A stretch of DNA of 41,554 bases from a virus. Below are positions 6,580-24,770 of the stretch, one piece after another; the stretch's first letter is position 1; each line of letters starts with the position of its first letter. The notes below the pieces were generated by a model that saw nothing but the letters and a program-made list of their open reading frames with translations, did not search any database and had not been told where the DNA came from. A program made the translations under genes and the position numbers. The stretch is taken from IMG/VR virus record IMGVR_UViG_3300045988_117571, positions 1 to 41,554 of that record; one strand, given 5' to 3'.

Positions 6580-6590
6580 GGGGCGAGCAC

Positions 6591-9029: not shown

Positions 9030-9306
9030 ACCGATCCCGGCACCGCTGCTGGCGGACCTGCCGGAGGACTGGACCGTAGGCCAGACCGTGGCCCCCACCG
9101 GGGAGGAGGTGGGCCTCACCCAGCAGCACGGGTACAACTACCTGATGGAGAAGGTCAACGAGGCCATCCAGGCCATCAACGCCCTCAATGAGGGCTTTGA
9201 GGATGTGGGCGGCTTCATCGAGATGGAACAGAGCCTGCCAGTGGGCGACCGGGTGGAGAACACGCTGTATGGGCTCATCCTGGTGGATTTTTCAGCAGAT
9301 ATATAA
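9019..9306 (+). CDS. Short tail-fibre-N-terminus-like protein (hypothetical)
   Basis: 95 aa, with RBS GGAAGGAG. The GLTQQHGYNYLMEKVNEAIQAINAL pattern resembles fibre N-terminal anchor regions. It ends at an AT-rich intergenic break. Confidence 0.45.
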   Translation: MATKPIPAPLLADLPEDWTVGQTVAPTGEEVGLTQQHGYNYLMEKVNEAIQAINALNEGFEDVGGFIEMEQSLPVGDRVENTLYGLILVDFSADI

Positions 9307-9377
9307 TCTATATTGCTTTTAATCCAAACGTACCCAGTTGACAATTTTCATCACCCTTTCAAAAGGAGGTTTTGCCT

Positions 9378-11279
9378 ATGAGCACCCGCTATGTGTGGGG
9401 GAGATATAACGCAACACCAGGCCTGACCAGCACCGTATCCGGACATGTTTATGATGGAGAACAAGAAACGATTATTACAGCAGACGAGGGCAAATTGTCC
9501 GGTAATGTTGGAACAATTTATTTTGCTGAATTTTCGCTTTGGGACCAAAATGACGTGAGTGCGTTTAAGCCAACTGGTATTAAAAACATCAAAACGATCA
9601 ATCCAGGAAACACAACAATAGAGCTATTGGGGAATGGTTTATTTTTGTTTTCTAAATCTCCTATTAATACCAATTCTACGTTCCCTGTTGGATGCGAATT
9701 TTATGACTCCGATGAAACAAGCAGTATCACCATCAGTTGGAATAATATATCTGCGCAAAGCGCCACGATAAAGGTCCTACAATCGAAAATTTATTATTCC
9801 AAGGGTGCCCTCCTGGGCGATTCCACCAGCGCTTTATCTGGAGCGTATCCCCAGAACGGGGTCTCCGGTAGATATTGGTATACTTACCAGGGGAGCGATA
9901 ATATTGACCCCACCGCCGTCTCCATCCCCTCCACCATCAATGGCGGCACAGCTATCAACATCACCGTCACACCGGGCACCGGCAAGGTCTACGGCGGAAC
10001 GGTCTCCTACCAGTACCAGGTCAAGTTGGGGAGCGGCGAGTGGACCACTATCGCTACCACATCCGCCACAACTCGCTCTTACACCGTCCCATACGGCACA
10101 GCATCCATCCAAGTTCGGGTGCGGGCGAAGGACAACCTGGGATTCACTTCGACGACCTACGTCACCAGCGCCTCCGTTACGGTCATCAACAACCAGCCGC
10201 CCACGGCCCCCGGCAGTATCGATGTGGCCAACGTGGTGGCGGGACAGCAGGCCACTATCACCCTGACGGCGGCCACCGACCCGGACGGCACCATCGCCAG
10301 CTACATCTATGAGCGGAGCGTGGACGGCAGCGCATGGACGCAGATCGCCAACGTCAACATCCTGACGCAGACGGACACCATCAGCGCAGACTGGGGTACG
10401 GTGGCGTACCGGGCCTGCGCCGTGGACGATGACGGGGCGAGCGGCCCCTATGTGACCAGCGAGACCACCACGGTCAACTCCGGGTGGGTCATCATCTCCG
10501 GCCCGGCCAGCGACATGGGGAACAAGCCAGCGCCGTTTGATTTTGTGTTCAGCGTCAGCGTGACTGGCCAGGCAAGTGTGGACGCCATCAACGTGGCCGT
10601 GACCCTGGACGGGGAGAGTATCTACACCGGAACGCCCAACAGCGGCGTGGAGGTGTCCATCCCCATCGACACCCGGCTGCTGGCGGCTGGGGAGCACACT
10701 GTGGAGGTCCAAGCTACAAAGGAGAGCTACCTGGAGGCCAACGGAAGTTACACCTTCGACGTGCCCGCCATCACCCTGCCCGACGGTGGCAGGGCGGAGA
10801 TGCTGCAAAATCCCGAGGGGGACGTGGTGTTCCCGTATACGTTGGCCAGAATGGTCATCGGAAAGGGTGGGAAAGACCTGAACGCCCTACTGGAGCAGGC
10901 CATGTCCACTGTGGCCACACTGACCGGGGAGGTCGGGGGAATCACCGGGGAAGTGACTGAGCTAAAGGCCGGGGCGCTGAAAATGGCAACTGGAAGCTAT
11001 ACGGGGACGGGAACAAATCAAATGTCATTAACATTCGATTTTGCTGTGAAGTTTTTGTTTGTTTTGCAGACGAGCGATAGCTCTTCCGGCAATTTTAAGG
11101 TTGGCAATTTAGTTTGGGTAGGGCAATCACAAGATGCTGAAATTAATTCAGAATCTATTAGCTATACCGTGTCAAATAATGGAAAGACGCTAACATGGAA
11201 CGGACCAACACTTGGCGGTTTTGTTTCGAACCAGAATTACTCTGGTTATCGGTATAGTTACTTTGCCATTGGCCAATAA
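9378..11279 (+). CDS. Tail fibre / receptor-binding protein with two FN3-like repeats
   Basis: About 633 aa from the ATG at 9378 (GGAGG 8 nt upstream; the track start at 9372 is a TTG). Two Ig/FN3-like repeats are visible (PTAVSIP...VTV and PTAPGSIDV...TTTV). The N- and C-terminal segments have much lower GC than the centre. Confidence 0.7.
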   Translation: MSTRYVWGRYNATPGLTSTVSGHVYDGEQETIITADEGKLSGNVGTIYFAEFSLWDQNDVSAFKPTGIKNIKTINPGNTTIELLGNGLFLFSKSPINTNSTFPVGCEFYDSDETSSITISWNNISAQSATIKVLQSKIYYSKGALLGDSTSALSGAYPQNGVSGRYWYTYQGSDNIDPTAVSIPSTINGGTAINITVTPGTGKVYGGTVSYQYQVKLGSGEWTTIATTSATTRSYTVPYGTASIQVRVRAKDNLGFTSTTYVTSASVTVINNQPPTAPGSIDVANVVAGQQATITLTAATDPDGTIASYIYERSVDGSAWTQIANVNILTQTDTISADWGTVAYRACAVDDDGASGPYVTSETTTVNSGWVIISGPASDMGNKPAPFDFVFSVSVTGQASVDAINVAVTLDGESIYTGTPNSGVEVSIPIDTRLLAAGEHTVEVQATKESYLEANGSYTFDVPAITLPDGGRAEMLQNPEGDVVFPYTLARMVIGKGGKDLNALLEQAMSTVATLTGEVGGITGEVTELKAGALKMATGSYTGTGTNQMSLTFDFAVKFLFVLQTSDSSSGNFKVGNLVWVGQSQDAEINSESISYTVSNNGKTLTWNGPTLGGFVSNQNYSGYRYSYFAIGQ

Positions 11280-11290
11280 GGAGGGGCACC

Positions 11291-11581
11291 ATGAAGATCA
11301 TATCCAAAACCCCCGCTGAAAACGGGGCATACCCCGCACTCCAGGAGTGGCCGGGCCTGGTGGCACCAGAAAGCCATTATAAATGGCCGGACACCCTGGA
11401 GACGGAAACCTTTTACCAGTACAATGGCTTCGTGGCCCTCACCGTGGTCCGGAGCATGGTGCAGAGCTACCAGCCCAACGTGGAGGCGTGGGAGGCGTGG
11501 AAAGCCACGCTTCCCCCCGAGCCGGAGCCGGGCGCGAGCGATACAGACGTGCTAAATACTCTGCTGGGGGTGACAGAATGA
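11291..11581 (+). CDS. Hypothetical protein (possible XkdW-like fibre accessory)
   Basis: 96 aa with RBS AAGGAGG. The call rests on position only. Confidence 0.4.
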   Translation: MKIISKTPAENGAYPALQEWPGLVAPESHYKWPDTLETETFYQYNGFVALTVVRSMVQSYQPNVEAWEAWKATLPPEPEPGASDTDVLNTLLGVTE

Positions 11582-12219
11582 ATCGACTGCAAGCGGCGGA
11601 ACAGTTGAGAAAGGTGCTTCAAATTTTCGCGGCAACCTTGACGGATGAACAGGCGATGGTGGTGGCCACGGTGTACCCCACATGGACGGTGAACACGGCT
11701 TATGCTGTGGGGGATATCATCAGCTACGGTACCAACGACGTGGGCGACCCACAGTTATACAAGGTCGTACAGGCGCACACCTCCCAGGCCCAGTGGACAC
11801 CGGACACGGTGCCGAGCCTGTATGACGCATTTGGTTTGGACGAAAGCGGGTATCCCCTGTGGGTACAGCCCAGTGGGGCACACGACGCATACAACGCGGG
11901 GGATATCGTCAACTACAACGGGACGCTGTACCAGTCCACCATCAACGGCAATGTGTGGTCCCCGGACGTGTACCCGGCGGGCTGGACGGTGTATGAGGCG
12001 GCCACGGAGCCAGAGGAGCCCGAACCGGATCCTGAACCAGAACCGGACCCGGAGGAGCCCACCACCTATCCCGAGTGGGTACAGCCCAGTGGGGCACACG
12101 ACGCATACAACGCGGGGGCTGTGGTCACTTACAACGGCAAGGTGTATCAGTCCCTTGTAGACGGCAATGTGTGGAGCCCGGCGGACTACCCCCAGGGCTG
12201 GCAGGAGGTGGAGGCGTGA
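11578..12219 (+). CDS. Carbohydrate-binding protein with three CBM5/12-like (chitin-binding-type) repeats
   Basis: 213 aa from the ATG at 11578 (ATGA overlap with the upstream stop). It has three units of the pattern W..(T/S)..Y..GD.V.Y.G..Y....H.S...W.P. The last two are WVQPSGAHDAYNAG..V.YNG..YQS...GNVWSP..YP.GW, separated by a Pro/Glu/Asp linker. Confidence 0.65.
   Translation: MNRLQAAEQLRKVLQIFAATLTDEQAMVVATVYPTWTVNTAYAVGDIISYGTNDVGDPQLYKVVQAHTSQAQWTPDTVPSLYDAFGLDESGYPLWVQPSGAHDAYNAGDIVNYNGTLYQSTINGNVWSPDVYPAGWTVYEAATEPEEPEPDPEPEPDPEEPTTYPEWVQPSGAHDAYNAGAVVTYNGKVYQSLVDGNVWSPADYPQGWQEVEA
11859..11902 (+). repeat. 44-nt perfect direct repeat, copy 1 (within the CBM gene)
   Basis: gtgggtacagcccagtggggcacacgacgcatacaacgcggggg is identical at 12075..12118, an offset of 216 nt (72 codons). 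Confidence 0.9.
12075..12118 (+). repeat. 44-nt perfect direct repeat, copy 2
   Basis: Identical to 11859..11902. Confidence 0.9.
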
Positions 12220-12521
12220 TCGAGGTGGTCTGTGCACTGATCGCCGCCGTGGCCTCCATCCTGGCCGCCACGGCGGAGGTACGGTCCCGGCGGTCTGCTA
12301 CTCGGATGGAGCGCCGGGCGGATCGGCGGTCCCACGAGATGCGCCTGAGCATGGAGTTGATGTACGCCACCTGTGCCCTGTCCCTGACCACGGCCAAAAA
12401 GCTGGCCGGGATGCACACCAACGGGGACGTGGAGGAGGCTATGCGGGCGGCAGAGGAGGCCCAGGAGGCCTATATCAACTTCGCCCGGGACGAGGCAGCC
12501 AAGAACTTTACCAAGATGTAA
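12216..12521 (+). CDS. Small membrane protein (lysis-cassette associated, hypothetical)
   Basis: 101 aa from a GTG at 12216 (GTGA overlap with the upstream stop). The N-terminus is a hydrophobic helix (IEVVCALIAAVASILAATA), followed by a charged helical tail. Confidence 0.5.
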   Translation: MIEVVCALIAAVASILAATAEVRSRRSATRMERRADRRSHEMRLSMELMYATCALSLTTAKKLAGMHTNGDVEEAMRAAEEAQEAYINFARDEAAKNFTKM

Positions 12522-12546
12522 TATCCCTGAAGCAAGGAGGTATAAC

Positions 12547-12753
12547 ATGCAGAACATCATCAAACGACTGGCCACGCTGCTGAGCGTGAAGAGCCTGGTC
12601 ACCCTGGTGCTGACAGGGGTGTTCGCCTATATGGCGTGTACCGGCCAGATCAGCCAGGACTTCATGACCATCTATGCGGTGATCATCGCCTTCTACTTCG
12701 GCACCCAGAGCCAGAAGGTGCAGGACGCGATTGAGGCGGGGGATGGGCTATGA
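12547..12753 (+). CDS. Holin
   Basis: 68 aa with two predicted TM helices and a charged C-terminus. RBS AAGGAGG. Its stop overlaps the endolysin start (ATGA). Confidence 0.75.
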   Translation: MQNIIKRLATLLSVKSLVTLVLTGVFAYMACTGQISQDFMTIYAVIIAFYFGTQSQKVQDAIEAGDGL

Positions 12754-13517
12754 ACCTGCATCAGCTTATCCTGACGGAAAACGACTGCTATAAGGCGGGA
12801 CGGGCCATCATCCCCAAGGGGGTGATGGTCCACTCCACAGGGGCCAACAACCCAAATTTGAAGCGCTATGTGGGCCCGGATGACGGCCTGCTGGGGACCA
12901 ACCAGAACAACAACCACTGGAACCGCTCCGGGGTGGGGGCCTGCGTCCACGCCTTCATCGGCAAGCTGGCGGACGGGTCCATCGCCACCTACCAGACCCT
13001 ACCCTGGAATATGCGGGGTTGGCACTGCGGCAAGAACGGCAACAATACCCATATCAGCTTTGAAATTTGCGAGGACGACCTAACCGACGGGGACTACTTC
13101 AACGCCGTCTACCGGGAGGCGGTGGAGCTGACGGCTTACCTGTGTGAGATATACGGCCTTGACCCCCTGGATGATGGGGTGGTCATCTGCCACTCGGAAG
13201 GATACCGCAGGGGCATCGCCTCCGGCCACGCCGACGTAGAGCACTGGTTCCCCCGGTTCGGCAAGAGTATGGACGATTTCAGGGCCGACGTGGCCACAGA
13301 AATGGAGGAAAACATGAGCTACGAACAGTGGAAGGAATACATGGAGCGGTACCGGAAGGAGCTGAGAGAGTTGCCCGGTTCCGACTGGTCTCAGGATGCC
13401 CGAGATTGGGCCATCCAAAACGGCGTATTCCGGGGCGATGAGAAGGGCAACGCCATGTGGCAGGACTTCATTACACGGGAACAGGTGGCGCAGGTCATGG
13501 AGCGCCTGCACGAATGA
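12750..13517 (+). CDS. Endolysin, N-acetylmuramoyl-L-alanine amidase (Amidase_2/PGRP fold)
   Basis: 255 aa. Motifs: VMVHSTGANNP, GWHCG, ISFEICED, VICHSEG...GHADVEHW. It lies immediately after the holin. Confidence 0.85.
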   Translation: MNLHQLILTENDCYKAGRAIIPKGVMVHSTGANNPNLKRYVGPDDGLLGTNQNNNHWNRSGVGACVHAFIGKLADGSIATYQTLPWNMRGWHCGKNGNNTHISFEICEDDLTDGDYFNAVYREAVELTAYLCEIYGLDPLDDGVVICHSEGYRRGIASGHADVEHWFPRFGKSMDDFRADVATEMEENMSYEQWKEYMERYRKELRELPGSDWSQDARDWAIQNGVFRGDEKGNAMWQDFITREQVAQVMERLHE

Positions 13518-13807
13518 AGCGGAAGGTGGCGTTTTCAAAACGCCTGATTGCTGACATCCGGGTGCTGCTGTGGGTGGTCACTTTGGGCGGGCTCGCCCTG
13601 GCAGCCTACTGCATCTATCGGGGATTTACAGGGTCCCTGCCGTGGCTGTCCGCTATGGTGGGGCTGCCCTGGACGGCCCACGGGGTAGTGTGCTCCTTCT
13701 ACCTCAACATGGCCAAGAGCGACCACAAAGAGGGCGGCATCACCTTCGAGGCGGCCAAATCCAAGGACTTCCAGCCGGATACTTACACCGCGTCACCACC
13801 GATTTAG
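13514..13807 (+). CDS. Membrane protein downstream of the endolysin (hypothetical)
   Basis: 97 aa from an ATG with ATGA overlap. It has two hydrophobic helices. It is the last gene of the plus arm. Confidence 0.5.
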   Translation: MKRKVAFSKRLIADIRVLLWVVTLGGLALAAYCIYRGFTGSLPWLSAMVGLPWTAHGVVCSFYLNMAKSDHKEGGITFEAAKSKDFQPDTYTASPPI

Positions 13808-13876: not shown

Positions 13877-14191
13877 TCACTCAATAACCCCCATCAGGCG
13901 CAAAATCAGGTCCACCTGCCAGACATCAGAAACAGCCCCTACTACTGCTCCGGCGGTTATCCATTCGGATAACCGCCATTTCTGTATGTCTTCCGGGCTC
14001 TCCGAGGTGTCCCTCTTACACTCGAACGCCACCATACGCCCTTGTATACTTCCTATTATATCAGGTGTCCCCCGCTCAGAAAAGACGTTGCCGTGAATGT
14101 TGATCGCTTTGGCTCCTGGTATGGAGTTGAGGTAGTCCAACACAGGCCGGACTACCCCAGTATACTCCAACCGCTTGTCACGGTTTGGCAC
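13877..14191 (-). CDS. VRR-NUC domain nuclease
   Basis: 104 aa. PD-(D/E)xK signature GTPDIIG ... VAFECK. It is the last gene of the minus arm and overlaps the upstream gene by 14 nt. Confidence 0.7.
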   Translation of the reverse strand: MPNRDKRLEYTGVVRPVLDYLNSIPGAKAINIHGNVFSERGTPDIIGSIQGRMVAFECKRDTSESPEDIQKWRLSEWITAGAVVGAVSDVWQVDLILRLMGVIE

Positions 14192-14582
14192 GTCTGATAA
14201 GCCTCCCTACCTCGTCGCTAACAATTTTCATCTGCGCCTCTCTAGTGGGAATGTCCTGCATGTCGGGCTTTTTCTCCTCGGTCCACAGGGCCATGAGGAG
14301 GTTAGTGGCCGCCGCGGCCAAGTGATCCTCGTCTGTCCATCCATCCATATATTTGGCCATATGCCGCATCGCCGAATCAAGCATGGTATGCATGGGTATA
14401 CCTTTTTCCCAGTTGCGCTCAGGGTAGTGACCTGATGTTACAGAGTTTTCCATGTGCTTAGACACCCTGATCAACGCGCACCACGGGAGCAAGTCCATAC
14501 GACCCTTTCCTCCAGTGTCCCTGATGGCACCAGTCTCAAATTTCTCCACAACGTTACCTCCCCGTAGAACCAAATCCGGCAT
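14178..14582 (-). CDS. dATP/dGTP pyrophosphohydrolase N-domain-like protein (DUF5664 / MazZ-N-like)
   Basis: 134 aa. The pattern GKGRMDLLPW..L..V...ME......Y.ERNWEKG....M..SAMRHM..Y..G..DEDHLAAAATNLLMAL matches my memory of the DUF5664 (dGTP_diPhyd_N) family. It overlaps the dUTPase gene by 29 nt. Confidence 0.6.
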   Translation of the reverse strand: MPDLVLRGGNVVEKFETGAIRDTGGKGRMDLLPWCALIRVSKHMENSVTSGHYPERNWEKGIPMHTMLDSAMRHMAKYMDGWTDEDHLAAAATNLLMALWTEEKKPDMQDIPTREAQMKIVSDEVGRLIRRAKP

Positions 14583-14988
14583 CCCCGCGCTTGCCGGGCA
14601 CCGCCTTGATCTCGTCTACCTCAGACCATCGTACATCTTCGATAACGTGGAACAGAACCTGGGCCAGGCGCATACCTTGTTCCACGTGAAACATCTTATT
14701 CCCGAGATTGTGTACACACACGAATAACTCCCCGGTATACCCATTATCAATAATACCCTCATTAATTAGGAGACCGTGTTTTCTAAGACTACTGGATCGT
14801 CCGGTAATCCGAGCATACAGGAACGGGGGCATATCAATTCTAACACCTGTATGCACATCCACTGTCTCCCCAGGCGGAATATCACAAGGTTGTGACACGA
14901 ACAAGTCCCACCCGGCGTCCCCCTGGTGCTTCTTGAAGGGGCGCTTAGCGCCCTCTTCAAGTGTGTAACTAACGTACCTAGCCGCCAT
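14554..14988 (-). CDS. dut: Trimeric dUTPase-fold nucleotide pyrophosphatase
   Basis: About 144 aa. Motifs: AGWDL, GRSS, GIIDNGYTGEL, RGDAGFGSTGR. Its ATG overlaps the stop of the upstream AdSS-like gene (TGATG). Confidence 0.85.
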   Translation of the reverse strand: MAARYVSYTLEEGAKRPFKKHQGDAGWDLFVSQPCDIPPGETVDVHTGVRIDMPPFLYARITGRSSSLRKHGLLINEGIIDNGYTGELFVCVHNLGNKMFHVEQGMRLAQVLFHVIEDVRWSEVDEIKAVPGKRGDAGFGSTGR

Positions 14989-16037
14989 CACCGCACCTCC
15001 ACCATGGTATCAGGGCCAGTACCGATGTACTTAACCATACCAAGTACACCAACTTCTTTCATGAACTCAAACAGGATTCTGGAGTTCATAACCGCCTTGG
15101 GATCCTCACACCCATACAGGCTAGGGTCCACATAGTCAACAAACATCAGGGCCACTTCTGTGGGGGAGTTCAGCATGCACGACTGTTCAAACAGCTCGTG
15201 GTCCCATTCTGCGATTCTGCGGATTTTCTTGGTTACCGTAGTTCTTTCGGACACCTCTTTACCGATCCGTCTGGACAGCTCCTCCCAGGAGATTTCATTC
15301 TTCATGGGGCCGGAGTTGCCCGCAACTCGGATGGGGTAGGTGCGGCACACCATCAAAACGTTGGTAACACGGGAGGGAGCAATACCCACTTCAGAGATGA
15401 TGCCCGCTGCGTTGGTATCGATGCTGGTACAGTACGGCCAGTGACTGTGCAGCAGGGACAGCGCAGACCCCTGTGTACCCTCTATTAAGATGTTGGCTCC
15501 TTCGTCCTGGAAGCTTGCGATCAGCGCTGGGGTATTGCTGCGCATACACTCGCAGAGACCGTACTCCTCGGCAACATCCTTAAACTGACGGAATTTGCTG
15601 GGGTCTCTCTGCAGTCTGGCGATGCGGGCCGGTCCAACACCCTCGCCGGTGGAACCGATGCGGCGATGCATCTCGCCACTGGTCCCTCCCTCCTCTTCGT
15701 GGAACTTCTCGTCCAAAATACCTGCTTCGGGATCCACGATCAGACGACCGAGGAAATCAGGGTAATGTCTCATAATGTGTACCAGCTCTTTCATGAACTG
15801 CTTCATGTTGAGCAGAGCCCCACGCCCAATAATGACAGTAGCATTAGGGTTAATCCATCCGCACGGGATGGACTGCATCACGTGTTTCTCCCCATTCCAA
15901 TAAATGGTGTGACCGGCGTTGGGGGAGCCTACCCTCACATGGACCTGGTATTCGTTGGCCACGTGTGCCGCTACCGCGCCTTTACCCTCGGATCCGTACT
16001 GGCCACCAACCAGCACTGTCAGTTTTCCTCGTTCCAT
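14988..16037 (-). CDS. purZ: Adenylosuccinate synthetase homologue, short phage type (PurZ-like candidate)
   Basis: 349 aa. Motifs: GGQYGSEGKG P-loop, NAGHT, IGSTGEGVGPA, IEGTQG, YPIRVAGNSGP, TTVTKKIRR. It is much shorter than bacterial PurA. It is flanked by a pyrophosphatase, a dUTPase, a HAD phosphatase and PolA. Confidence 0.7.
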   Translation of the reverse strand: MERGKLTVLVGGQYGSEGKGAVAAHVANEYQVHVRVGSPNAGHTIYWNGEKHVMQSIPCGWINPNATVIIGRGALLNMKQFMKELVHIMRHYPDFLGRLIVDPEAGILDEKFHEEEGGTSGEMHRRIGSTGEGVGPARIARLQRDPSKFRQFKDVAEEYGLCECMRSNTPALIASFQDEGANILIEGTQGSALSLLHSHWPYCTSIDTNAAGIISEVGIAPSRVTNVLMVCRTYPIRVAGNSGPMKNEISWEELSRRIGKEVSERTTVTKKIRRIAEWDHELFEQSCMLNSPTEVALMFVDYVDPSLYGCEDPKAVMNSRILFEFMKEVGVLGMVKYIGTGPDTMVEVR

Positions 16038-16426
16038 TCCAAAATTCTCCTTACATTTTTAATGGTTATGTCCACAGCGGTCCCCGTGGAAAAAACGTCT
16101 TGCACCACCACAAAATTGGGATTGTGGTCATCAATGTAGACATCCGCGTACACCTTTCTTGTGCCGCTGGGGTATTTCGCCTTATACTTAGCAATATTGC
16201 TGGGCGCATTTTCGTTCACGGCGCAGAAGTGGATCCCCCGCACCTCACACCAATCAACCGCTGCCGTGAGTTCTTCTCCAACTCTGGAGGTCCATAGAAC
16301 GACCTCGTGTCCTTTATCAATCACTTCCCGAATGAAGGACACCATTTCGTCATGCTGGGGGCCGATTTCAGGAAATCGGTTCTCACATAAAATTCCGTCA
16401 AAATCCACTGCTATGATCACTGACAT
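16019..16426 (-). CDS. HAD-superfamily phosphatase (nucleotidase-like)
   Basis: 135 aa from the ATG at 16426, with GGAGG upstream. The track ORF extends to 16558, but that part has no RBS and is Arg-rich and implausible. Motifs: I AVDFDGIL, II WTSR, IV YIDDH. It overlaps the purZ-like start by 19 nt. Confidence 0.65.
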   Translation of the reverse strand: MSVIIAVDFDGILCENRFPEIGPQHDEMVSFIREVIDKGHEVVLWTSRVGEELTAAVDWCEVRGIHFCAVNENAPSNIAKYKAKYPSGTRKVYADVYIDDHNPNFVVVQDVFSTGTAVDITIKNVRRILEWNEEN

Positions 16427-16494
16427 ACCTTCTTTCTGGCCTCCCGTGGCCTCTTCCTTGCGCTTGAGGCCACGGGGGTACTCACATACCGACC

Positions 16495-18315
16495 TCACCC
16501 GTCTGAGCCAACGGAGCGCAACGGAGGGGGCACGACGATGTCTTCTCCTGGCTTCCACTTCTTGAATGTTCCCCAGGACCTACCGTACTCAACGTCCACA
16601 CCTACTGCCGGAACAAAGTCGAAGTCTTCCATGATAGTCTTGATGGCGGGTATGGCCACCTTCAGTTGGTCGTCCGGGACCTCAAACATCACGGAGTCGT
16701 GTACCTGCAGTAGCATATACCCTCCAATGTCCAGCATGGCCGGGAACAGTCTAGATATTGCCACTCTGACGATCTCAGCAACACCACCCTGAATTAAGTT
16801 GGACATCGCCTTGTGGGGGTCAGCCTCCGGAACGTTAAAATGCCGGGTTCTGCCGGTCCACATCTTGATGTACCCGTTTTGCTTGGCAAAATCCTCACAT
16901 TGATACATCAGCTTGCGGAATCCGGGGTACAGCTTGTGGTACCGTTCCAAGTAGTCCCGCGCCACTTCTTGCTCCACCCGCAAGTTTTCGGCTAGGTGCT
17001 TATATCCTATACCATAAATTACCGAGAAATTGATCCGCTTAGCCGCATTACGAGGAATCCCCAACAACTCAGCGGTTGCGGAGTGTAGGTCCGCGTCCTG
17101 CTCGATCAACCCCCGCATTGTAGCATCCTTGGTGTAGTGGGTCACCAGTCGCATTTCAGCTTGCTTGTAGTCTGCCTGGATCATCGTATATCCGGACCTG
17201 GCCTCAAACACATCCTTCACCTTGAACACCTCAGTGTGCTTTGCCACTGCCTGCAGATTCGGGTTACTACACGACAGACGTCCAGTGTACGTACCGATTA
17301 GGTTTAAGGAACAATGGAGAGCATTGTCAGAATCCATAGCCTCGATATACGGCGTGTAGTACCTGCTGTCCACCGACAACCACCCACGGGCCTCCTGCAC
17401 CAATTTAGCCCGTTCGGCTCCCTCCCCACCAGCATCAATCAACTCCTGCAGACGCTCTGCTGCCGAGGACTTTACTCCAAGGAACTCGCACACTTTCTTC
17501 GACGAATTTGGGTTGAGATCGAACCCAGCTTTGGTGTTCAGTCTCTCTTTAGCATCTTTAGAGTGCTGTACTGCTTCATTCCTATACTTGGAAATGGTGT
17601 CGGGGTTGATAAGCATCCCGCGCTGCTCCATCAGCATCACCACGTAACTGTAGTAGTTTACCTGTCTCCAGATATCATACAAACCGTGATATTGCAAAGC
17701 TGGCCTGACGAGTTCCAACAGCGCCCTGGTGAGCCTAACATCGTCACAAGCGTACGGTTCCACGTCTGCCGGATCCAACACATACATCATAGATTTTACG
17801 TTGTTTTCAGATTTCGGATTCCTACTGCATGGGAGCCCTAGGCGCTGGCACTCTTCGAATACCTTATCCTCAAGGATGGATTCTTGTAGGGATCCTTCCC
17901 CAATACCATATCGGTCACATATCTCTTTCAATTTGAACGATGGTTCATTCTCGTTAAGTAGATGTACTGCCAGCATGGCATCTTCAAAATTGGGGGCTGG
18001 GACAATTCCATCTGTAGACATCATATGTTCGTCGAAACTGTAGTTAAACCCGCCATACGTCCTATGCGGATCCGACAGGTACCCTCGGAAGAATTTCATA
18101 CACTCTATCGGCAAGTTGGTTCCCTGTGCATGCCGGAAAGGAAAATAGTAGGCTTCTTCCCCTCGATCCACAGCAATACCTATCACTTTGTCCTGCTTTC
18201 TCTTGGAGTTGCCGAAGATGCACAAACCAGTGGTTTCGGTGTCCACACATGGGTCTGTGCAGGACAGGAGCAGGGGTTTGACCTTCTCCAGCATCTCCGG
18301 TGTGTTGACGAGCAT
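16495..18315 (-). CDS. Family A DNA polymerase with 3'-5' exonuclease domain (DpoZ candidate)
   Basis: 606 aa. Exo motifs: DTETTGL, FNYSFDEHM, YACDDV. Pol motifs: A DYKQAEMRL, B RNAAKRINFSVIYG, C QVHDSVMFE. Confidence 0.9.
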   Translation of the reverse strand: MLVNTPEMLEKVKPLLLSCTDPCVDTETTGLCIFGNSKRKQDKVIGIAVDRGEEAYYFPFRHAQGTNLPIECMKFFRGYLSDPHRTYGGFNYSFDEHMMSTDGIVPAPNFEDAMLAVHLLNENEPSFKLKEICDRYGIGEGSLQESILEDKVFEECQRLGLPCSRNPKSENNVKSMMYVLDPADVEPYACDDVRLTRALLELVRPALQYHGLYDIWRQVNYYSYVVMLMEQRGMLINPDTISKYRNEAVQHSKDAKERLNTKAGFDLNPNSSKKVCEFLGVKSSAAERLQELIDAGGEGAERAKLVQEARGWLSVDSRYYTPYIEAMDSDNALHCSLNLIGTYTGRLSCSNPNLQAVAKHTEVFKVKDVFEARSGYTMIQADYKQAEMRLVTHYTKDATMRGLIEQDADLHSATAELLGIPRNAAKRINFSVIYGIGYKHLAENLRVEQEVARDYLERYHKLYPGFRKLMYQCEDFAKQNGYIKMWTGRTRHFNVPEADPHKAMSNLIQGGVAEIVRVAISRLFPAMLDIGGYMLLQVHDSVMFEVPDDQLKVAIPAIKTIMEDFDFVPAVGVDVEYGRSWGTFKKWKPGEDIVVPPPLRSVGSDG

Positions 18316-18800
18316 CAGCCCTCTCTGGCCTCAGCCAGCTCCTTGAGAGTCATCACACGGGAGATTTGGGAGCGGGCTTGGCCGTTGTACTCAGTCACCT
18401 CAATAAGGGCGCCGCAGTCTTTACCAACCACATCAGACCGTTTGAATTTAACTACCTGACCTTGCTGTCCCACACCAAGGGCCATCACGGTTTCCGCTAC
18501 CTTCCACATAGCAGCAGGGGTGATGGCCGTAAACACCTTGAACTCCCGACCAGTGTAATTACCCTCTACCACTGCGAACGTCCAGACGAACATCGGGTTG
18601 CCGCTCTTAGAAACGGACTGCTCCACATCGTTGCAACACACCTTATACAAGCCATCTGGAACCTTAAAGTTGTCCTGTACATTGGTGAGATCAATCTCAA
18701 AAGCATCCGGAGAAGAAACGGAACTGTTACCGGGCATGGGGGACTGAGTGGAGGGAGCGGGGACTCCACCGGGGGCGGGCATAAAAGGGTTGTTAGTCAT
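18315..18800 (-). CDS. DUF669-like protein (SSB-like partner of the Sak4 ATPase)
   Basis: 161 aa. It lies directly downstream of the Sak4-like ATPase, as is usual. The core pattern is P.G.Y......VE...SK.G.PM.V..F.V.EG.Y.GR. Confidence 0.55.
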   Translation of the reverse strand: MTNNPFMPAPGGVPAPSTQSPMPGNSSVSSPDAFEIDLTNVQDNFKVPDGLYKVCCNDVEQSVSKSGNPMFVWTFAVVEGNYTGREFKVFTAITPAAMWKVAETVMALGVGQQGQVVKFKRSDVVGKDCGALIEVTEYNGQARSQISRVMTLKELAEAREG

Positions 18801-18815
18801 TTTGTTTTCCTCCTG

Positions 18816-19595
18816 TTAATTGTTTAAATACTTCCCCATGATATCAACCATGTTGGGATCTCGAATGATTGGACCAATACGCTGAGCAAACTCACTGCCA
18901 CGGGTTTTAGCAGCAAAGTTGTTCATAGGCTGGGTGAGAAGGTATCTATGTGTCTCGCTGCGGTACCCAACTTCCTCGTTACCGGCCTGCTCGTCAGCGG
19001 TGTACAGATACCACACAAAGTCCATATACCCCATCACTGCCGTGCAAAGCTTCTCGGTCAGGTTGGGTTTGGACTCTTCTAGGACGTTGGTGCCCTTGCG
19101 CATTTTGTCTTTCTTGTGGGCGATGTAGATGACGTGCATCGGAAGGTCCCTAAACCCCCGCAGGATTCGGGCAAGGCGTTTGCCAGACACCCCGTAGTCC
19201 TCCAAGTAGACTTCATCAATGGAGTAATTCTTGTCCTTCTTGCGCCGATTGGCGAACTCCTTAGTGGTGATCCCCTCCAGTACCAGGGTTTGCAGCTCAG
19301 TAATGTTGTCAATCACCACGGTTTTGGTGTTTTCATACTTCGGATCGTGACTAACAATCCGGAAAAGTTCTTGCTCCAGATCATCTGCTGTGTGGATGTC
19401 CGTTGCATGAATGTCCCCACGGCTGGCCAACGTCATGATACCACCATCGATGTTGAAAACGTGGACATCAGCCATTTCTGGCACATCTTGGGCGGTACCG
19501 GCCAGGTAAGTCTTCCCACTTCCTGGGTCCCCATAAATTAAAACGTTGAGCTTACTCAGAAAGATGCTAGGTGTAATCAAATAACCGTCATTCAT
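18816..19595 (-). CDS. AAA/RecA-like ATPase (Sak4-type recombination protein)
   Basis: 259 aa. Walker A is YGDPGSGKT and Walker B-like is VVIDNITEL. It is paired with a DUF669 gene. Confidence 0.7.
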   Translation of the reverse strand: MNDGYLITPSIFLSKLNVLIYGDPGSGKTYLAGTAQDVPEMADVHVFNIDGGIMTLASRGDIHATDIHTADDLEQELFRIVSHDPKYENTKTVVIDNITELQTLVLEGITTKEFANRRKKDKNYSIDEVYLEDYGVSGKRLARILRGFRDLPMHVIYIAHKKDKMRKGTNVLEESKPNLTEKLCTAVMGYMDFVWYLYTADEQAGNEEVGYRSETHRYLLTQPMNNFAAKTRGSEFAQRIGPIIRDPNMVDIMGKYLNN

Positions 19596-19599
19596 TTTA

Positions 19600-19992
19600 T
19601 CACCTTCTTAGTATGTTTCCTTCCCAATCTACTACGCCCGTCCTAATTAGCTCAGGTATAGTCTTGTTGTTCCATCTACTGTGCAAAATGTGTAAGTGAC
19701 ACCTTTCGCACAGACACACAAGATTAGAAAATTCGTTATTGGTATTATCTTGGTCTTTATGGTGGATATGCAGTTCTACGCCATCATCACGGGTGGCTCC
19801 ACAATAGAAACATTCCCACACGCCACCTCCATCAGTATATGATCTCTTGTGAGGTAGCCCACGGTCTTGCATTCTGCGGTTGTTGCGTAGTCTCTGCTCC
19901 TCACTCAATTCGGATACCCTGTATTTGTGCTGATTGCGCCTTTTTGATTCTCTCTTGCATATCTTGGCTTTTTCAGGGTCTTTATACGGCAT
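19600..19992 (-). CDS. HNH endonuclease
   Basis: 130 aa. Motif: CFYCG...ELHIHHKD.D..NN...NLV.LC..CH..IH. Confidence 0.8.
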   Translation of the reverse strand: MPYKDPEKAKICKRESKRRNQHKYRVSELSEEQRLRNNRRMQDRGLPHKRSYTDGGGVWECFYCGATRDDGVELHIHHKDQDNTNNEFSNLVCLCERCHLHILHSRWNNKTIPELIRTGVVDWEGNILRR

Positions 19993-20001
19993 ACTTCCTC
20001 C

Positions 20002-20571
20002 TCATGTCTTATCGATGTAGGTTGCGGCTTCATCTGCCACATGAAGCAGCCACGCCAGCCGGTTGTGCTCGAACACTTCCCCGGGCTTTCCGTAGTCCTG
20101 CCGGTCCCACGGCCCCATATGGCAATTGATAGCGGCGGCCTCAAACGGCTCCAGGCTCATAAAATGCTGGACCAGGTATACAGACTTGGACCCGTGTCCA
20201 CCGAACGGAAAACTCTCCTCGAATTTGTAGAAGGGCACCTTCTCCCATTGGCCGGTTTGGTCGTTCTTCACATTACGGGTGGACACTTTGTAGCACCCCA
20301 CCTTACACAGGTCGTGAAACAGGGCCACAATGGCCTCGGACTCCCGGCTGCACCTAGCTCCTTCCATGTCATAGAATTCGTTAAGGTCTTTCAATCGCCG
20401 GTATACGTTCAGACTGTGCATCGCTAATCCACCCTCGAACGCGCCATGGTACCGGCTGGACGCCGGAGCGGTGAAGAAATCAGTGGCCTGAATCCATTCG
20501 AGTAGCTTGTCAATCCCATCGCGGTGAATCCCCCGCTTGGCTATGGTCAAAAATTCATCCTTGATGTTCAT
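20002..20571 (-). CDS. HD-domain phosphohydrolase (DatZ-like dNTP hydrolase candidate)
   Basis: 189 aa. Metal-binding pattern: RYHG...H..., LFHDLCK, HGSKS, HVADEAA. Confidence 0.6.
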   Translation of the reverse strand: MNIKDEFLTIAKRGIHRDGIDKLLEWIQATDFFTAPASSRYHGAFEGGLAMHSLNVYRRLKDLNEFYDMEGARCSRESEAIVALFHDLCKVGCYKVSTRNVKNDQTGQWEKVPFYKFEESFPFGGHGSKSVYLVQHFMSLEPFEAAAINCHMGPWDRQDYGKPGEVFEHNRLAWLLHVADEAATYIDKT

Positions 20572-20591
20572 TTCGTCACCTCCTATATATA

Positions 20592-21716
20592 TTATACCAT
20601 GTTAGTGGGGGTGTTGTCAACACCCTTATTGTCATTCCTACCGCGAACGGTGTACTCACGTAGTCGGATCTCCTTTGCGTCGTAGTCTCTCAGCTCCGCC
20701 TGGCATAAGGATTGATATTGGCACATCTTGCAATTCCAGGGGTACATAAACCGCTTGTTTCCTCCCTTGTGGGACCTCTTCACGGCCCAGGATGCCGGTA
20801 CCACTACTTCGTCCCAGATTCTTTTCACGGTGGAGTCGTTGCGGTACTCGTAGGTTGCACGGAACCACTCAATATCAGCCAGCTTAGGCTCCATCTCTTC
20901 CCGGTATGGTTCCGGGTCCACCCCTTGGGCGGCACAAAATCGTGCGTAATGATTCCAGGTAGTCTTAATCTTGGTCCGGCTGATAGTCCCGTTCTTGTTC
21001 ACTGCCGGGTCTGCGGCCGGAGTGTTGCAGTGCTGCCAGGTCATGGTACCTGTGATCTTGATACCCATTTTGCTGCAAGCATGAGTATACACCGCGTTCT
21101 GGACGTTGTACGCTTCCTCGGTGTCGTCCGACAGGGATTTTCGGAATTTGTAATCAGTACACCATGTAAACCCCGTTTCCTTATCCCTGAGAATCGCATC
21201 AATATACCCATGTAGCCCCCCGGAGCCGGGACAAGGCACCAGAAAATGGAGCTCCAGCGCCGGTACGGGTTTGCCGCCCTTCTGCATCGTCACCACTTCA
21301 TACTTCCACGGCTCAAATTCATTAAACGCCTGAGTAAACACCGACACCGCGTCAGTCAAAATCTGCTCCTGGTCCGGGATCTCCTCTACCAAGAACTCGT
21401 TGTTCCTCATATACGTATCCCACTCGGCCACCATGGCGTCCACCCCGTTAGCCCTCCAGGACCCGTACAGCCCGCACTCATAGGAAGTATCTAGTCCATC
21501 TTGCTGGTCCTTCCACGCTTCCTGCATGGCGGTTTGCATTCCCTTGTGGCAGAGCTTACCTACCGTCAGGAACGGTCGTTCTACACGGGGCTTGAGGTTC
21601 TCAATGTAGTTGTACTCCCACTTCTTGGGGCAGCTCATATGCGTCATGAGCTGGGATACTGACACCATCCCCTCAGGGGTCGTCCCTTCCGGGAACAGGC
21701 ACTTGGTATTTTTCAT
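20592..21716 (-). CDS. PD-(D/E)XK / Cas4-RecB-like exonuclease with C-terminal Cys cluster
   Basis: 374 aa from the ATG at 21716 (GGAGG 8 nt upstream); the longer track ORF crosses the intergenic inverted repeat. Nuclease-core pattern: GYIDAIL..., TDYKF. C-terminal Cys cluster: CKMCQYQSLC. Confidence 0.65.
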   Translation of the reverse strand: MKNTKCLFPEGTTPEGMVSVSQLMTHMSCPKKWEYNYIENLKPRVERPFLTVGKLCHKGMQTAMQEAWKDQQDGLDTSYECGLYGSWRANGVDAMVAEWDTYMRNNEFLVEEIPDQEQILTDAVSVFTQAFNEFEPWKYEVVTMQKGGKPVPALELHFLVPCPGSGGLHGYIDAILRDKETGFTWCTDYKFRKSLSDDTEEAYNVQNAVYTHACSKMGIKITGTMTWQHCNTPAADPAVNKNGTISRTKIKTTWNHYARFCAAQGVDPEPYREEMEPKLADIEWFRATYEYRNDSTVKRIWDEVVVPASWAVKRSHKGGNKRFMYPWNCKMCQYQSLCQAELRDYDAKEIRLREYTVRGRNDNKGVDNTPTNMV

Positions 21717-21746
21717 GTTGTAACCTCCTGTTGTAGCCGCTCGGGT

Positions 21747-21792
21747 GTTGTATTGCATTGCACTCCCAAGGGAGATGCAATACAATACAACA
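21747..21792. repeat. Imperfect inverted repeat IR-1 (arms GTTGTATTGCATTGCACTCCC / GGGAGATGCAATACAATACAAC)
   Basis: Read by eye. It lies in the 141-nt gap between the primase-helicase stop and the nuclease start. The 19-nt core atgcaatacaatacaacaa (21775..21793) is identical to 31140..31158. Further TACAA/TTGTA half-sites lie at 21812..21848. Confidence 0.85.
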
Positions 21793-21857
21793 ACCTCGCC
21801 AACGGCCCGCACAATACAAGTTGTAGTTGTTGTATACCGTGTTGTAATGGCGCAACA

Positions 21858-23672
21858 TCACTCTACCCCTTTTCTCTTGTACCTCCCGTCGGGCATCTTC
21901 TCCACCATTCCAGCAGCCTCTAGTTGTCTGATCTGCCGGGAAATAGTGGAGCGGGTCTTGCCTGCCTTGCTGCACAGGTCCCCCTGGGACATTGGACCTT
22001 CCTGCATGAGGTCCAGCAAATTGGCCTGGGCGGGTTGTCGGTTCTCGGTGTTGGATAGGGCTTGATACTGGTTGGATACTACCTGATACTGCATGGGGTA
22101 CTTGGTGCTGATGTTGAAGGTCAACGAGATGGGGGGCTGGTTGCCCATCACCTTGGAATGGCGGCGCACTACTATTTCATTCGAGGCTAGGCGCGGATTG
22201 CGTCGCACCTGCCAACCGGCCTCCAGGAATGCGTTAAGAAATTGGGACCCCCAGGAATCCTCACGGGCCGTACTGTCCGGGTCCAGATTCTTCTTGGAGT
22301 GGTGGGCCAGCACAAACGAGCATCCATACTTGTCGCGCCATGTTTTCAGTACCATCATCTGGTTAGCTAGATCGGCCATGTAGTTGTCCACGGCTGCCGT
22401 GGTGGAGTATAGCGGGTCAATCATAATTACCTTGGGTCGGATCGTAGCGATCTGTTGCTCCAGCTCCTCCAGGACCTTTTTGTTGTCGAATCGTAGCATA
22501 CGGGACGGATGCACGTAAATCGGCAGGTCTGGCATACAAGGAACTTGCCATATATCCCCGTCAATGTTAGTCGTGGCCCCCAATTTCTGTTCCACAATTA
22601 GAGCTAAACGATCAGTTAGCCCGGTGTGGCTATCTTCCTGCTGGATGATTATAGTGGGACCTTTGTCGTTAACAGGATACCTTCCCAAGAATGGGACCCC
22701 GGAAGATATCGACACGGCTAGGTCTAGCAGTATCCAAGTCTTGTAGCTCTCAGGTGGAGAGATCAGGAAGGTAATACTTTTGTCCGGCAACCAGTCCTCC
22801 ACCAACCAGGAGACCCCCTCACCGCCGTATCCTTTGACATAGTCGGCCATACGCATGACATCAAATGTGGAGTGCTTTTGCTGCTGTTCCTTCTCTACGG
22901 CGGTCCGGTCGTCCTCAAACTGGACAGACGTAAACTGAGTTTCCTCAATTGCGTGGTTGCGCTCTATAGACTTGATGGTTGTCCGTATTTCCCGAACCGG
23001 CAACGGGGGGTCGTTCCGCTCGTTCCATTCCATCAATAGGGTCTCCACTATATCGGAGTTGATCCCCTTCTTGAAGAAATACCCGGCCAGTCGCGCACAG
23101 GCATCGTTCCTGCCGCCTTCGGAGACACCTCGGAGCGTTTCTGTTATCCACCCGTCATTTTGTACCCGGGGTTGTGCCTGAAGCTCAAGAAGAGCCACTG
23201 GGAACGCCCCGAGAGGCCCTCTCTTAACCCATTCGTACCTGTTGCCGTTCGGGTGAATTGTGGGGGGCAGTACGATGAACCCCCCGTCTGCTCTCAGGTC
23301 TGCCCCGTCGAAAATTCTCACTCTGTTGGACACGTGAGGAACAGAGGTTGGGTACTGATAGAACAGGTGGTACCCACCGGACCCTGTACGGGAGTACATT
23401 TGGGTCGGATACCTTCTTAGCAGGTCCTCGATGGAGTATGGGCAGCTAGCCTCCACATCCAGCACCACCATGTTGGACACTCTTCCGGTCACAACACCGA
23501 CTCCCACACCTGACAAATTGACGAACCACGACGTTACCATCTCTTTGGTAGCTTTCGTCTTGGTATATTGCAGCCAGTTGGTCATGAACGGACGTTTCTC
23601 CTCGGGCTTTACAGGCAACACACTCCAGCCGCTGTCCACATACTCAGCCGCTAAATCAATCGTCGTTGCCAT
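21858..23672 (-). CDS. Primase-polymerase / helicase fusion with C-terminal winged-helix domain
   Basis: 604 aa. The N-terminal bifunctional Prim-Pol pattern is GWSVLPV...KRP...W, GVGVVTG...VVLDVE. A PriCT-like motif GGRNDACARLAGYF follows. The central RepA/AAA_25-like P-loop is SPPESYKT. The C-terminal wHTH is GDLCSKAGKTRSTISRQIRQLEAAGMV. Confidence 0.8.
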   Translation of the reverse strand: MATTIDLAAEYVDSGWSVLPVKPEEKRPFMTNWLQYTKTKATKEMVTSWFVNLSGVGVGVVTGRVSNMVVLDVEASCPYSIEDLLRRYPTQMYSRTGSGGYHLFYQYPTSVPHVSNRVRIFDGADLRADGGFIVLPPTIHPNGNRYEWVKRGPLGAFPVALLELQAQPRVQNDGWITETLRGVSEGGRNDACARLAGYFFKKGINSDIVETLLMEWNERNDPPLPVREIRTTIKSIERNHAIEETQFTSVQFEDDRTAVEKEQQQKHSTFDVMRMADYVKGYGGEGVSWLVEDWLPDKSITFLISPPESYKTWILLDLAVSISSGVPFLGRYPVNDKGPTIIIQQEDSHTGLTDRLALIVEQKLGATTNIDGDIWQVPCMPDLPIYVHPSRMLRFDNKKVLEELEQQIATIRPKVIMIDPLYSTTAAVDNYMADLANQMMVLKTWRDKYGCSFVLAHHSKKNLDPDSTAREDSWGSQFLNAFLEAGWQVRRNPRLASNEIVVRRHSKVMGNQPPISLTFNISTKYPMQYQVVSNQYQALSNTENRQPAQANLLDLMQEGPMSQGDLCSKAGKTRSTISRQIRQLEAAGMVEKMPDGRYKRKGVE

Positions 23673-23898
23673 CTTCTTCCTCCTTGTGTGCTACCATGAA
23701 CAGCTCATGGGTGTTGACCTTGTACAGGGCCGCGTACTTGAGGATCGCCTCTTCAGACAGGGTCCGACCACCGCTCTCATGGCGGGAAATAGCGGGGACA
23801 CTAAAACCGGTCAGGATGCTAACCTCTTGAAGGGTCAGCCGGGAGCGGTCCCGAAGCTCCTTGAGCCGGTTCTTGGGTGCGGAATTATCCTTCATCAT
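23656..23898 (-). CDS. XRE-family helix-turn-helix transcriptional regulator (Cro-like)
   Basis: 80 aa. HTH: LTLQEVSILTGFSVPAISRHESGGR. RBS AAAGGAGG. It is the first gene after a consensus promoter and overlaps the primase-helicase start. Confidence 0.8.
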   Translation of the reverse strand: MMKDNSAPKNRLKELRDRSRLTLQEVSILTGFSVPAISRHESGGRTLSEEAILKYAALYKVNTHELFMVAHKEEEDGNDD

Positions 23899-23915
23899 AT
23901 CACCTCCTTTCGTTT

Positions 23916-23945: not shown

Positions 23946-24028
23946 TAGGCTTATTGTCAGTTCTCACTACCCCCAAAAACTTCTTGCACATGATGGCCAT
24001 CCAGACGGCCTCGTGGGTGGTACAGCGT

Positions 24029-24769: not shown

Positions 24770-24770
24770 G

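Follow-up and report, generated by a model that had tools for sequence, protein, structure and literature searches.

A predicted PurZ0-type 2-aminoadenine pathway in the genome of a contractile-tailed phage, probably of gut Clostridia

The viral DNA analysed here, IMG/VR record IMGVR_UViG_3300045988_117571, positions 1-41,554 (41,554 nucleotides; this whole stretch is called the window below, and all window coordinates refer to it), carries a minus-strand gene run centred on a PurA (adenylosuccinate synthetase) homologue. We consider it likely that this phage encodes a PurZ0-type pathway for 2-aminoadenine (Z) and that Z is present in its virion DNA. This reading draws on the observed gene content, residues, phylogeny and synteny, from which the enzyme activities and the incorporation of Z are predicted by homology with characterised enzymes. 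In the phages S-2L, phiVC8 and SH-Ab 15497, the corresponding set consists of PurZ, DatZ, MazZ and DpoZ, and an initial annotation of the window had proposed a candidate Z operon with that set in mind. The proposal agrees with the diagnostic residues of the synthetase and with the presence of a DutZ-type dUTPase-fold protein (Dut) and a DUF5664 protein, but the right reference is the PurZ0/DutZ/DUF5664 system of the phages Ghobes and Wayne (PMC12884076).

The central gene (14988-16037, minus strand) encodes a putative PurZ0-like succino-amino-deoxyadenylate synthase of 349 amino acids, which matches PF00709 (E=2e-50) and PHROG 1211, the PurZ family (E=1.4e-73). The PurA-scaffold motifs quoted earlier for this protein were all recovered (GSEGKG, NAGHT, IGSTGEGVGP, EGTQG and TTVTKKIRR), and its shortness, given before as about 80 residues, amounts to 83 residues relative to E. 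coli PurA (432 amino acids). Its residues were read from a curated alignment that also contained the PurA of E. coli and P. horikoshii together with three sequences each of PurZ0 and PurZ, and reference positions are numbered as in E. coli PurA. The catalytic residues K19, N40, H43, T130, R144, Q189, T204 and R273 of the synthetase are intact. Its P-loop reads GSEGKG, in contrast to the GDEGKG of 14/14 PurA references, which means that the position of Asp13 in PurA is held by Ser (S16), as it is in PurZ and PurZ0. According to published comparisons, all of 147 phage PurZ (100%) have Ser at this position, while 99% of PurA have Asp (PMC12884076), and the exchange of Ser for Asp in phiVC8 PurZ (S14D) leads to a loss of substrate selectivity (bioRxiv 10.1101/2025.10.22.683976). 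Criteria for the other residues of the PurZ pocket were taken from PMC8342488 and the same preprint. In line with them, Gly298 of PurA is replaced by Thr (T266; compare T273 in S-2L and T262 in phiVC8), and Arg303, which contacts the 2'-OH of inosine monophosphate (IMP), is replaced by Lys (K271), a residue also found in PurZ0 and phiVC8. After the conserved Val, the RVG-AGP of PurA is extended to RVAGNSGP, an insertion of two residues relative to archaeal PurA that is also present in PurZ0. The synthetase shows these residue features of PurZ in the broad sense, and in the alignment its contacts to the 2-amino group of guanine and to the region of the deoxyribose agree with both PurZ0 and PurZ.

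Two further positions separate the PurZ subtypes. Glu14 is kept in the window (E17) as in PurA and PurZ0, whereas PurZ has Thr, and the guanine-binding Asp333 is kept (D301) as in PurZ0, whereas the ATP-using PurZ have Asn or Gln. At both positions the window protein agrees with Ghobes, Wayne and Galactica as well as with PurA, and neither the GSTGKG P-loop nor the Asn/Gln at 333 of ATP-using PurZ was found in it. Because the equivalent of Asp333 is kept, GTP is probably the phosphate donor of this enzyme. Tong et al. 2023, who reportedly published the PurZ0 pathway, are also said to describe the use of GTP by PurZ0. GTP as donor for PurZ0 and ATP for PurZ are likewise given in the introduction of bioRxiv 10.1101/2025.10.22.683976. 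In section 24 of PMC12884076, the donors preferred by PurZ0 and PurZ are given as "ATP and GTP, respectively", which conflicts with the introduction of that same paper, where PurZ uses ATP; the two donors were probably swapped in this sentence.

To obtain relatives of the synthetase, 1.84 billion representatives of 50%-identity clusters were searched exhaustively, and the best 150 matches were taken. Among these 150 representatives, Ser is found at the Asp13 position throughout, save for one Gly and six fragments. A neighbour-joining tree was built with simple distances and 200 bootstraps from 167 sequences, among them E. coli PurA and 13 archaeal PurAs of chromosomal origin, and it split all Ser13 sequences from all 14 Asp13 PurAs at 99.5% bootstrap support. 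Within it, the archaeal PurA, the window clade and PurZ are each supported at 100% and the actinophage PurZ0 at 98%, the order among these clades being left unsettled by the tree. The window synthetase is 32-36% identical to actinophage PurZ0, and its clade lies outside the one formed by Ghobes, Wayne and Galactica. The initial annotation had read the PurA homologue as PurZ-like and had named nesting inside genuine PurA clades as the outcome that would speak against this reading; no such nesting was seen in the neighbour-joining tree, and both the diagnostic residues and the exclusion from the Asp13 PurA clades agree with the reading. Judged by its PurZ-defining residues and this separation, the enzyme is not a genuine PurA. 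It is best regarded as the third lineage among the Ser13 sequences, having a PurZ0-like active site and, probably, GTP as donor. The lineage is a large one: in public assemblies, its synthetases at ≥74% identity fall into at least 120 distinct 90%-identity clusters.

The next gene (14554-14988, minus strand) encodes a protein of 144 amino acids (PF00692, E=2e-27) that we annotate as a putative DutZ-like, dUTPase-fold deoxynucleoside triphosphate (dNTP) diphosphatase. When 1216 phage records with a Dut homologue were ranked, the top 25 were all PurZ0 actinophages, with identities of 39-47%. The protein is 46% identical to the DutZ of Ghobes, Archimedes and Goodman, compared to 34-39% for the Dut of E. 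coli and vaccinia. It also shares three motifs with the characterised DutZ of Ghobes and Wayne, namely DAG, RSSxLRK and IDxGY, in places where canonical Dut has S/A-AG, RSG and IDxDY. By best-match ranking, identities and motifs alike, this Dut groups with the DutZ enzymes that hydrolyse dATP and dGTP rather than with canonical dUTPases. Scores of hidden Markov models (HMMs) were uninformative on this point and cannot separate the two, because the characterised DutZ score the same as canonical Dut. The DutZ of Ghobes and Wayne hydrolyse dATP and dGTP to the deoxynucleoside monophosphates, and a dutZ gene is found in every PurZ0 genome (PMC12884076).

Downstream of Dut follows a DUF5664 gene (14178-14549, minus strand), whose product matches PF18909 at 65 bits against a gathering cutoff of 27 (E=8e-18). 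It had been labelled DUF5664/MazZ-N-like; the membership in PF18909 stands, and a tblastn search of the window revealed no MazZ homologue. The protein aligns over the whole domain with gp51 of phage Wayne (27% identity), the gene of which is located directly downstream of Wayne PurZ0. Judging by the Pfam match, gp51 is presumably the Wayne DUF5664 enzyme that hydrolyses dATP, dGTP and dUTP (PMC12884076). By analogy, Dut and DUF5664, the "pyrophosphatases" of the run in the initial annotation, are read here as functional stand-ins for DatZ and MazZ.

Gene order was compared across 80 IMG/VR loci (L023-L102), 19 of which are close to the window. Since the pattern used in the scan contained QYGSEGK, the presence of Ser13 in these 80 loci was not counted as evidence. 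The order PolA-HAD-synthetase-Dut(-DUF5664), in which PolA stands for a family-A DNA polymerase and HAD for a phosphatase, is unchanged in 19/19 close loci, 18 of which have the DUF5664 gene, always downstream of Dut. It recurs in relatives with synthetase identities of 77%, 64% and 51%, the last with its linked gene set on a siphovirus-type contig. Across the 80 loci, a DutZ-like Dut lies beside Ser13 synthetases in 56, even where synthetase identity has fallen to 35-38%. A relative with 47% identity has neither the HAD nor the DUF5664 gene and carries a NUDIX hydrolase (L018:9068-9538) directly downstream of the synthetase, in the place of Dut, which fits the need for a dNTP pyrophosphatase at this position. 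Other Ser13 lineages carry DUF550, or fusions of a P-loop kinase with the synthetase that are followed by a DUF4406 (NDT-like) gene. In these fusions (L019:7807-10769, L065-L067 and L071), an N-terminal P-loop nucleotide-kinase-like domain (AAA_18/AAA_33/CPT) is joined to the Ser13 synthetase, and they may represent a variant of the Z pathway. The relative with 77% identity (MAG contig VKOL010000281.1) has a radical-SAM gene between PrimPol and a PD-(D/E)xK exonuclease (L013:3250-4101), which is absent in the window.

Upstream of the synthetase gene lies a gene for a HAD phosphatase of the capless BT0820 type (16019-16426, minus strand; 135 amino acids, likewise 135 in the JGI gene call). It has no Pfam match, and its assignment comes from NF046079 (BT0820-type phosphatase, E=4.9e-26), PDB 2obb (E=3.5e-18) and a fold search (E=3.4e-11). 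The catalytic residues (DxD, Thr, Lys and DD) do not vary among 33 homologues. The structure model is confident, with a predicted local distance difference test score (pLDDT) of 95, but the only significant structural match is the uncharacterised BT0820, so that no substrate could be assigned from structure, and a literature search on BT0820 and 2OBB returned nothing relevant. The gene is found directly upstream of the synthetase in 19/19 close loci and in the relative with 51% synthetase identity. Across the 80 loci, the HAD gene occurs in 20 and an NDT/DmtZ-like gene in 25, and the two are found together in none. A HAD phosphatase is not part of any described Z-cluster. Because its gene overlaps that of the synthetase in a conserved manner and excludes DmtZ-like genes, we speculate that it clears dAMP or another unwanted nucleotide in the role of DmtZ or DatZ.

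The following pathway can be proposed from these genes. The DutZ-like Dut and the DUF5664 protein would deplete dATP and supply deoxyguanosine monophosphate (dGMP). The Ser13 synthetase would then join dGMP and aspartate to dSMP (N6-succino-2-amino-2'-deoxyadenylate), probably with GTP. Host PurB, a nucleoside-monophosphate kinase and nucleoside-diphosphate kinase (NDK), none of which is encoded in the window, would turn dSMP into dZTP, and the adjacent PolA would replicate the genome with Z opposite T. Speculatively, the HAD phosphatase may dephosphorylate dAMP or another unwanted nucleotide in the clearance role of DmtZ/DatZ. No PurB homologue was found in the window, so the phage would depend on the host enzyme for this step. 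Ghobes and Galactica have a PurB (adenylosuccinate lyase) of their own (L004:413-1546 and L007:11844-13113).

Several observations weigh against a Z pathway in this phage. Sequencing reads Z as A and therefore cannot reveal Z in the window DNA. Profile-HMM placement, which the initial annotation had suggested as a check, left the synthetase below two cutoffs alike, its PurZ-family match being that to PHROG 1211: it scores 251.6 bits against 300 on the NCBIfam PurZ model NF038379, which the references all pass (Ghobes 346, Galactica 364, phiVC8 397), and 268.7 bits against 368 on the archaeal PurA model NF003295, slightly more than on the PurZ model. The tree is a neighbour-joining tree with simple distances, and its Ser13 sequences were picked as best matches to the query. 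Specificity for dGMP is extrapolated, since the synthetase lies outside both biochemically characterised clades. Dut just passes the canonical dUTPase equivalog cutoffs, and because it does so and DutZ enzymes keep their dUTPase activity, its activity on purine dNTPs is a putative one. The closest relatives of the HAD phosphatase are in phages without PurZ, as are those of an HD-domain protein encoded further upstream, and the nearest phage relatives of DUF5664 are found in non-PurZ Firmicute phages, which suggests local recruitment. Finally, PolA falls short of the models for Z-specific polymerases, as detailed below.

Part of this evidence would suit an ordinary auxiliary PurA of the short archaeal type that boosts AMP/ATP during infection and is encoded beside an ordinary dUTPase in a phage with canonical DNA. 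The archaeal PurA model NF003295 yields the highest NCBIfam score of the synthetase, the best sequence match in the PDB is P. horikoshii PurA (E=1.5e-51), followed by the PurZ0 7vf6 (E=1.4e-45), the JGI label is adenylosuccinate synthase, and Dut passes the canonical cutoffs. An AlphaFold model (pLDDT 83) had 7vf6 as its top match in a fold search (E=2.8e-27, TMq 0.81), a point in favour of the PurZ reading, but it matched 5k7x with E=8.7e-27 and TMq 0.83, the TM-scores to the two being equal within error. Such a PurA is nevertheless very unlikely here: the catalytic base Asp13, found in 99% of PurA, is Ser, the Arg303 that contacts the 2'-OH of IMP is Lys and Gly298 is Thr, the cutoff of NF003295 is missed by 100 bits, the 14 genuine PurAs group apart from the synthetase at 99.5% bootstrap support, and the nearest relatives of Dut are exclusively DutZ. 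A second possibility is that this third Ser13 lineage uses an acceptor other than dGMP, such as GMP or another purine monophosphate, and makes a product other than the Z precursor. The distinctness of the window clade from both characterised clades, with deep branching that the neighbour-joining tree does not settle, and the low confidence of the model at residues 191-207 near the active site leave some room for this, but it appears hardly probable, given that the contacts to the 2-amino group of guanine and to the region of the deoxyribose agree with PurZ0 and PurZ, that deoxynucleotides are the substrates of the partner enzymes (ribose is kept out of the Dut fold by the conserved Tyr of IDxGY), and that the synthetase gene adjoins a DNA polymerase gene. 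Synthesis of a Z precursor from dGMP therefore remains our preferred reading of the synthetase.

How completely Z would replace adenine depends on a different set of observations. The PolA of the run (16495-18315, minus strand; 606 amino acids; PF00476 and, for its 3'-5' exonuclease domain, PF01612) is a family-A polymerase, presumably the replicative one, and belongs to neither DpoZ family. It scored 164.8 bits against a cutoff of 500 on NF038380 (phiVC8-type) and 58.9 against 350 on NF038381 (Wayne-type), while the reference DpoZ enzymes reach 434-1145 bits on the DpoZ models. Motif B reads NFSVIYG in the window and its relatives, with Tyr at position B4, in contrast to the NFSLIFG with Phe of Ghobes, Wayne and Goodman; Phe at B4 is common to both DpoZ clades (PMC10201439). 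The nearest phage relatives of PolA are non-Z actinophage polymerases (27-30% identity), and its assignment as a DpoZ is not supported. Its gene adjoins the synthetase cluster in 19/19 close loci and co-varies with the synthetase. As PolA has neither DpoZ membership nor the Phe at B4, the exclusion of adenine may be less complete than in characterised Z-phages. Z nucleotides might accordingly be made while the genome is only partly substituted, or the products might be put to some other use, for instance to disturb host replication or defence, and the absence of a DatZ-type triphosphohydrolase and of DmtZ from the window, together with a PolA outside both DpoZ families and without their shared Phe, is consistent with such an outcome. 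We regard it as unlikely, since the window has two conserved candidates for dATP hydrolysis (the DutZ-like Dut and DUF5664), S-2L can do without DpoZ and reaches full substitution in the absence of a Z-specific polymerase (PMC10201439), and all characterised PurZ and PurZ0 phages have been described as fully substituted (PMC12884076). Substitution of the virion DNA by Z thus remains the preferred reading.

Other parts of known Z systems were searched for in the window as well. A tblastn search with S-2L MazZ, the PMBT28 DUF550 fusion, the NDT of Wayne and Ghobes, and DUF4406 found no homologue, Pfam scans of the small open reading frames (ORFs) of the window for MazZ, DUF550 and DmtZ were negative, and no homologue of DatZ, NUDIX or PurB was found anywhere in the window. 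The HD-domain phosphohydrolase mentioned above (20002-20571, minus strand; 189 amino acids; PF01966, E=5e-6; PHROG 28876) was considered as a DatZ (PF12917) and rejected, as it has no significant BLASTP or PDB match to the DatZ of S-2L or phiVC8. Its family occurs in the Streptococcus phages Dp-1 and MS1, the Faecalibacterium phage FP_Epona, the Clostridium phage Saumur and the Lak megaphages, of which Dp-1, FP_Epona, Saumur and Lak are described as non-Z. The HD gene is present in 14/19 close loci and absent from the relatives with 51-64% synthetase identity. The protein is possibly an accessory nucleotide hydrolase and would not be a core part of the pathway.

All genes that had been listed for the minus-strand run are present, at or near the coordinates given for them. 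In order of transcription they are DUF669 (18315-18800, minus strand, from the ORF listing), PolA, HAD, synthetase, Dut, DUF5664 and a small endonuclease-like ORF (13877-14191, minus strand). For the last of these, the earlier VRR-NUC label is supported only as far as a generic endonuclease (PHROG 93, E=2e-10), and no Pfam match was found. The end of the DUF5664 gene is where it had been placed, but its start is better set at 14549, where a GTG is preceded by GGAGG as ribosome-binding site (7 nt upstream), than at the less likely ATG at 14582. The genes are tightly packed, and the run had also been described as translationally coupled. This applies to DUF669/PolA and synthetase/Dut, where TGATG stop/start overlaps were read directly at the junctions, to the HAD gene and the synthetase start, which overlap by 19 nt, and to the DUF5664 gene and the next ORF, which overlap by 14 nt, but not to PolA and HAD, which are separated by a gap of 68 nt and are not coupled.

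An exact direct repeat of 99 bp is found at the two ends of the window (1-99 and 41456-41554) and corresponds to the k=99 assembly overlap; the window therefore represents a complete circular genome of ~41,455 bp. It encodes sheath, tube, tape measure, baseplate J, YqbQ-like and Mu-gp48-like proteins, which bears out the contractile-tailed carrier proposed before. Large terminase, portal and major head protein make up the packaging and head genes, and the replication module contains a PrimPol-helicase, an SNF2 helicase, a PD-(D/E)xK exonuclease, a Sak4-like ATPase and PolA. No integrase was found among the annotated window genes. Structural and packaging genes (1-13800 and 31333-41455) have a GC content of 58-63% and a GC content at third codon positions (GC3) of 74-87%, compared to 49-54% and 55-68% in the replication/Z module (13877-31244). 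This sharp split suggests that the two genome halves are of different evolutionary origin, that is, a mosaic genome. A C5-cytosine DNA methyltransferase (29911-30984, minus strand; PF00145, E=3.6e-26) would be a second DNA-protection function beside the putative Z substitution.

Megablast against deposited phages revealed no close relative of the window at the DNA level, and a prophage scan of GTDB representative genomes for the host gave a single weak match that was judged spurious. A literature search by sample accession yielded nothing on the habitat. For the portal protein, the best relatives come from a human-faecal phage fragment (74%) and from Agathobaculum phages (37%), and the HD, DUF5664 and HAD proteins have their nearest relatives in human-faecal, Faecalibacterium, Enterocloster and Bacillus phages. 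Since the relatives of these four proteins sit in such phages, the host is probably a member of the gut Clostridia. A contractile-tailed phage of Firmicute type, unlike the classic Z-phages, had been suggested as the carrier; the contractile tail is confirmed, and the host relationships are consistent with the rest of this suggestion.

The siphoviruses and podoviruses in which Z-genomes have been demonstrated so far infect Cyanobacteria, Proteobacteria and Actinobacteria. If Z is present in the window phage, contractile-tailed gut Clostridia phages would join this range. Because their synthetases fall below the cutoff of the PurZ HMM, curated annotation misses these genes and labels them as adenylosuccinate synthase. 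A new accessory activity in the control of the Z-nucleotide pool may reside in the conserved HAD phosphatase, and PolA is of a third polymerase lineage that may be able to handle Z. Z-DNA is resistant to many restriction enzymes, a property that bears on the arms races between gut phages and their hosts and on virome methods that use enzymatic DNA handling. Going further, we tentatively raise the rather doubtful idea that the window represents a third, independently assembled Z-DNA system in a large and widespread clade of contractile-tailed gut Clostridia phages, in which HAD would clear dAMP or a competitor in place of DmtZ/DatZ and PolA would have adapted convergently to Z. If true, this would bring Firmicute gut viromes into the range of Z-genomes and add a class of enzyme that is new to the pathway.

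Among known systems, the window is best compared to that of the actinophages, represented by the Gordonia phages Ghobes and Archimedes (PDB 7vf6) and the Arthrobacter phage Wayne, which consists of PurZ0 and DutZ, with or without DmtZ and DUF5664-1, and a Wayne-type DpoZ. Both share a synthetase with Ser13, Glu14, Thr at S-2L position 273, Lys303, Asp333 and RVAGNSGP, a DutZ-type Dut close downstream of it and a PolA just upstream, and DatZ and MazZ are missing from the window as well; as in the case of Wayne gp51, a stand-alone DUF5664 adjoins the synthetase. In contrast to the actinophage system, the window synthetase forms a separate clade at 32-36% identity and scores below the NF038379 cutoff, a DmtZ/NDT gene and a phage PurB are lacking, and a BT0820-type HAD is found where no described cluster has one. 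PolA is not a Wayne-type DpoZ, DUF5664 belongs to a different sub-lineage, and the carrier has a contractile tail and a probable gut Clostridia host instead of being an actinobacterial siphovirus.

With the ATP-using PurZ of the S-2L/phiVC8 type, the window shares Ser13, Thr273, the loss of Arg303 and the linkage of the synthetase to replication genes and a PolA, and it has a DUF5664 domain, as do the fusion proteins of SH-Ab 15497 and PMBT28. It differs from this system in its P-loop (GSEGKG, not GSTGKG), in having Asp rather than Asn/Gln at 333, in lacking DatZ, MazZ and DUF550, and in a PolA that fails the phiVC8-type DpoZ model. The short archaeal PurA (P. horikoshii, 5k7x/2d7u; NF003295) is similar in its length of ~340 amino acids, its fold (TMq 0.83) and the Asp of the GTP pocket. 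However, the window protein departs from it by Asp13 to Ser, Gly298 to Thr, Arg303 to Lys and the two-residue insertion after RV(G/A), lies outside the archaeal clade (100%) at 99.5% support and below the NF003295 cutoff, and is encoded by a phage gene beside a DutZ-like Dut. PurZ homology has already led to the prediction of more than 2000 viruses as dZ phages (PMC13128860), and the PurZ0/DutZ/DUF5664 pathway itself is already published (PMC12884076). New here are a distinct Ser13 lineage that scores below the PurZ cutoff, the conservation of a HAD instead of DmtZ, a PolA that falls into neither DpoZ family, and their occurrence in a contractile-tailed phage of probable gut Clostridia.

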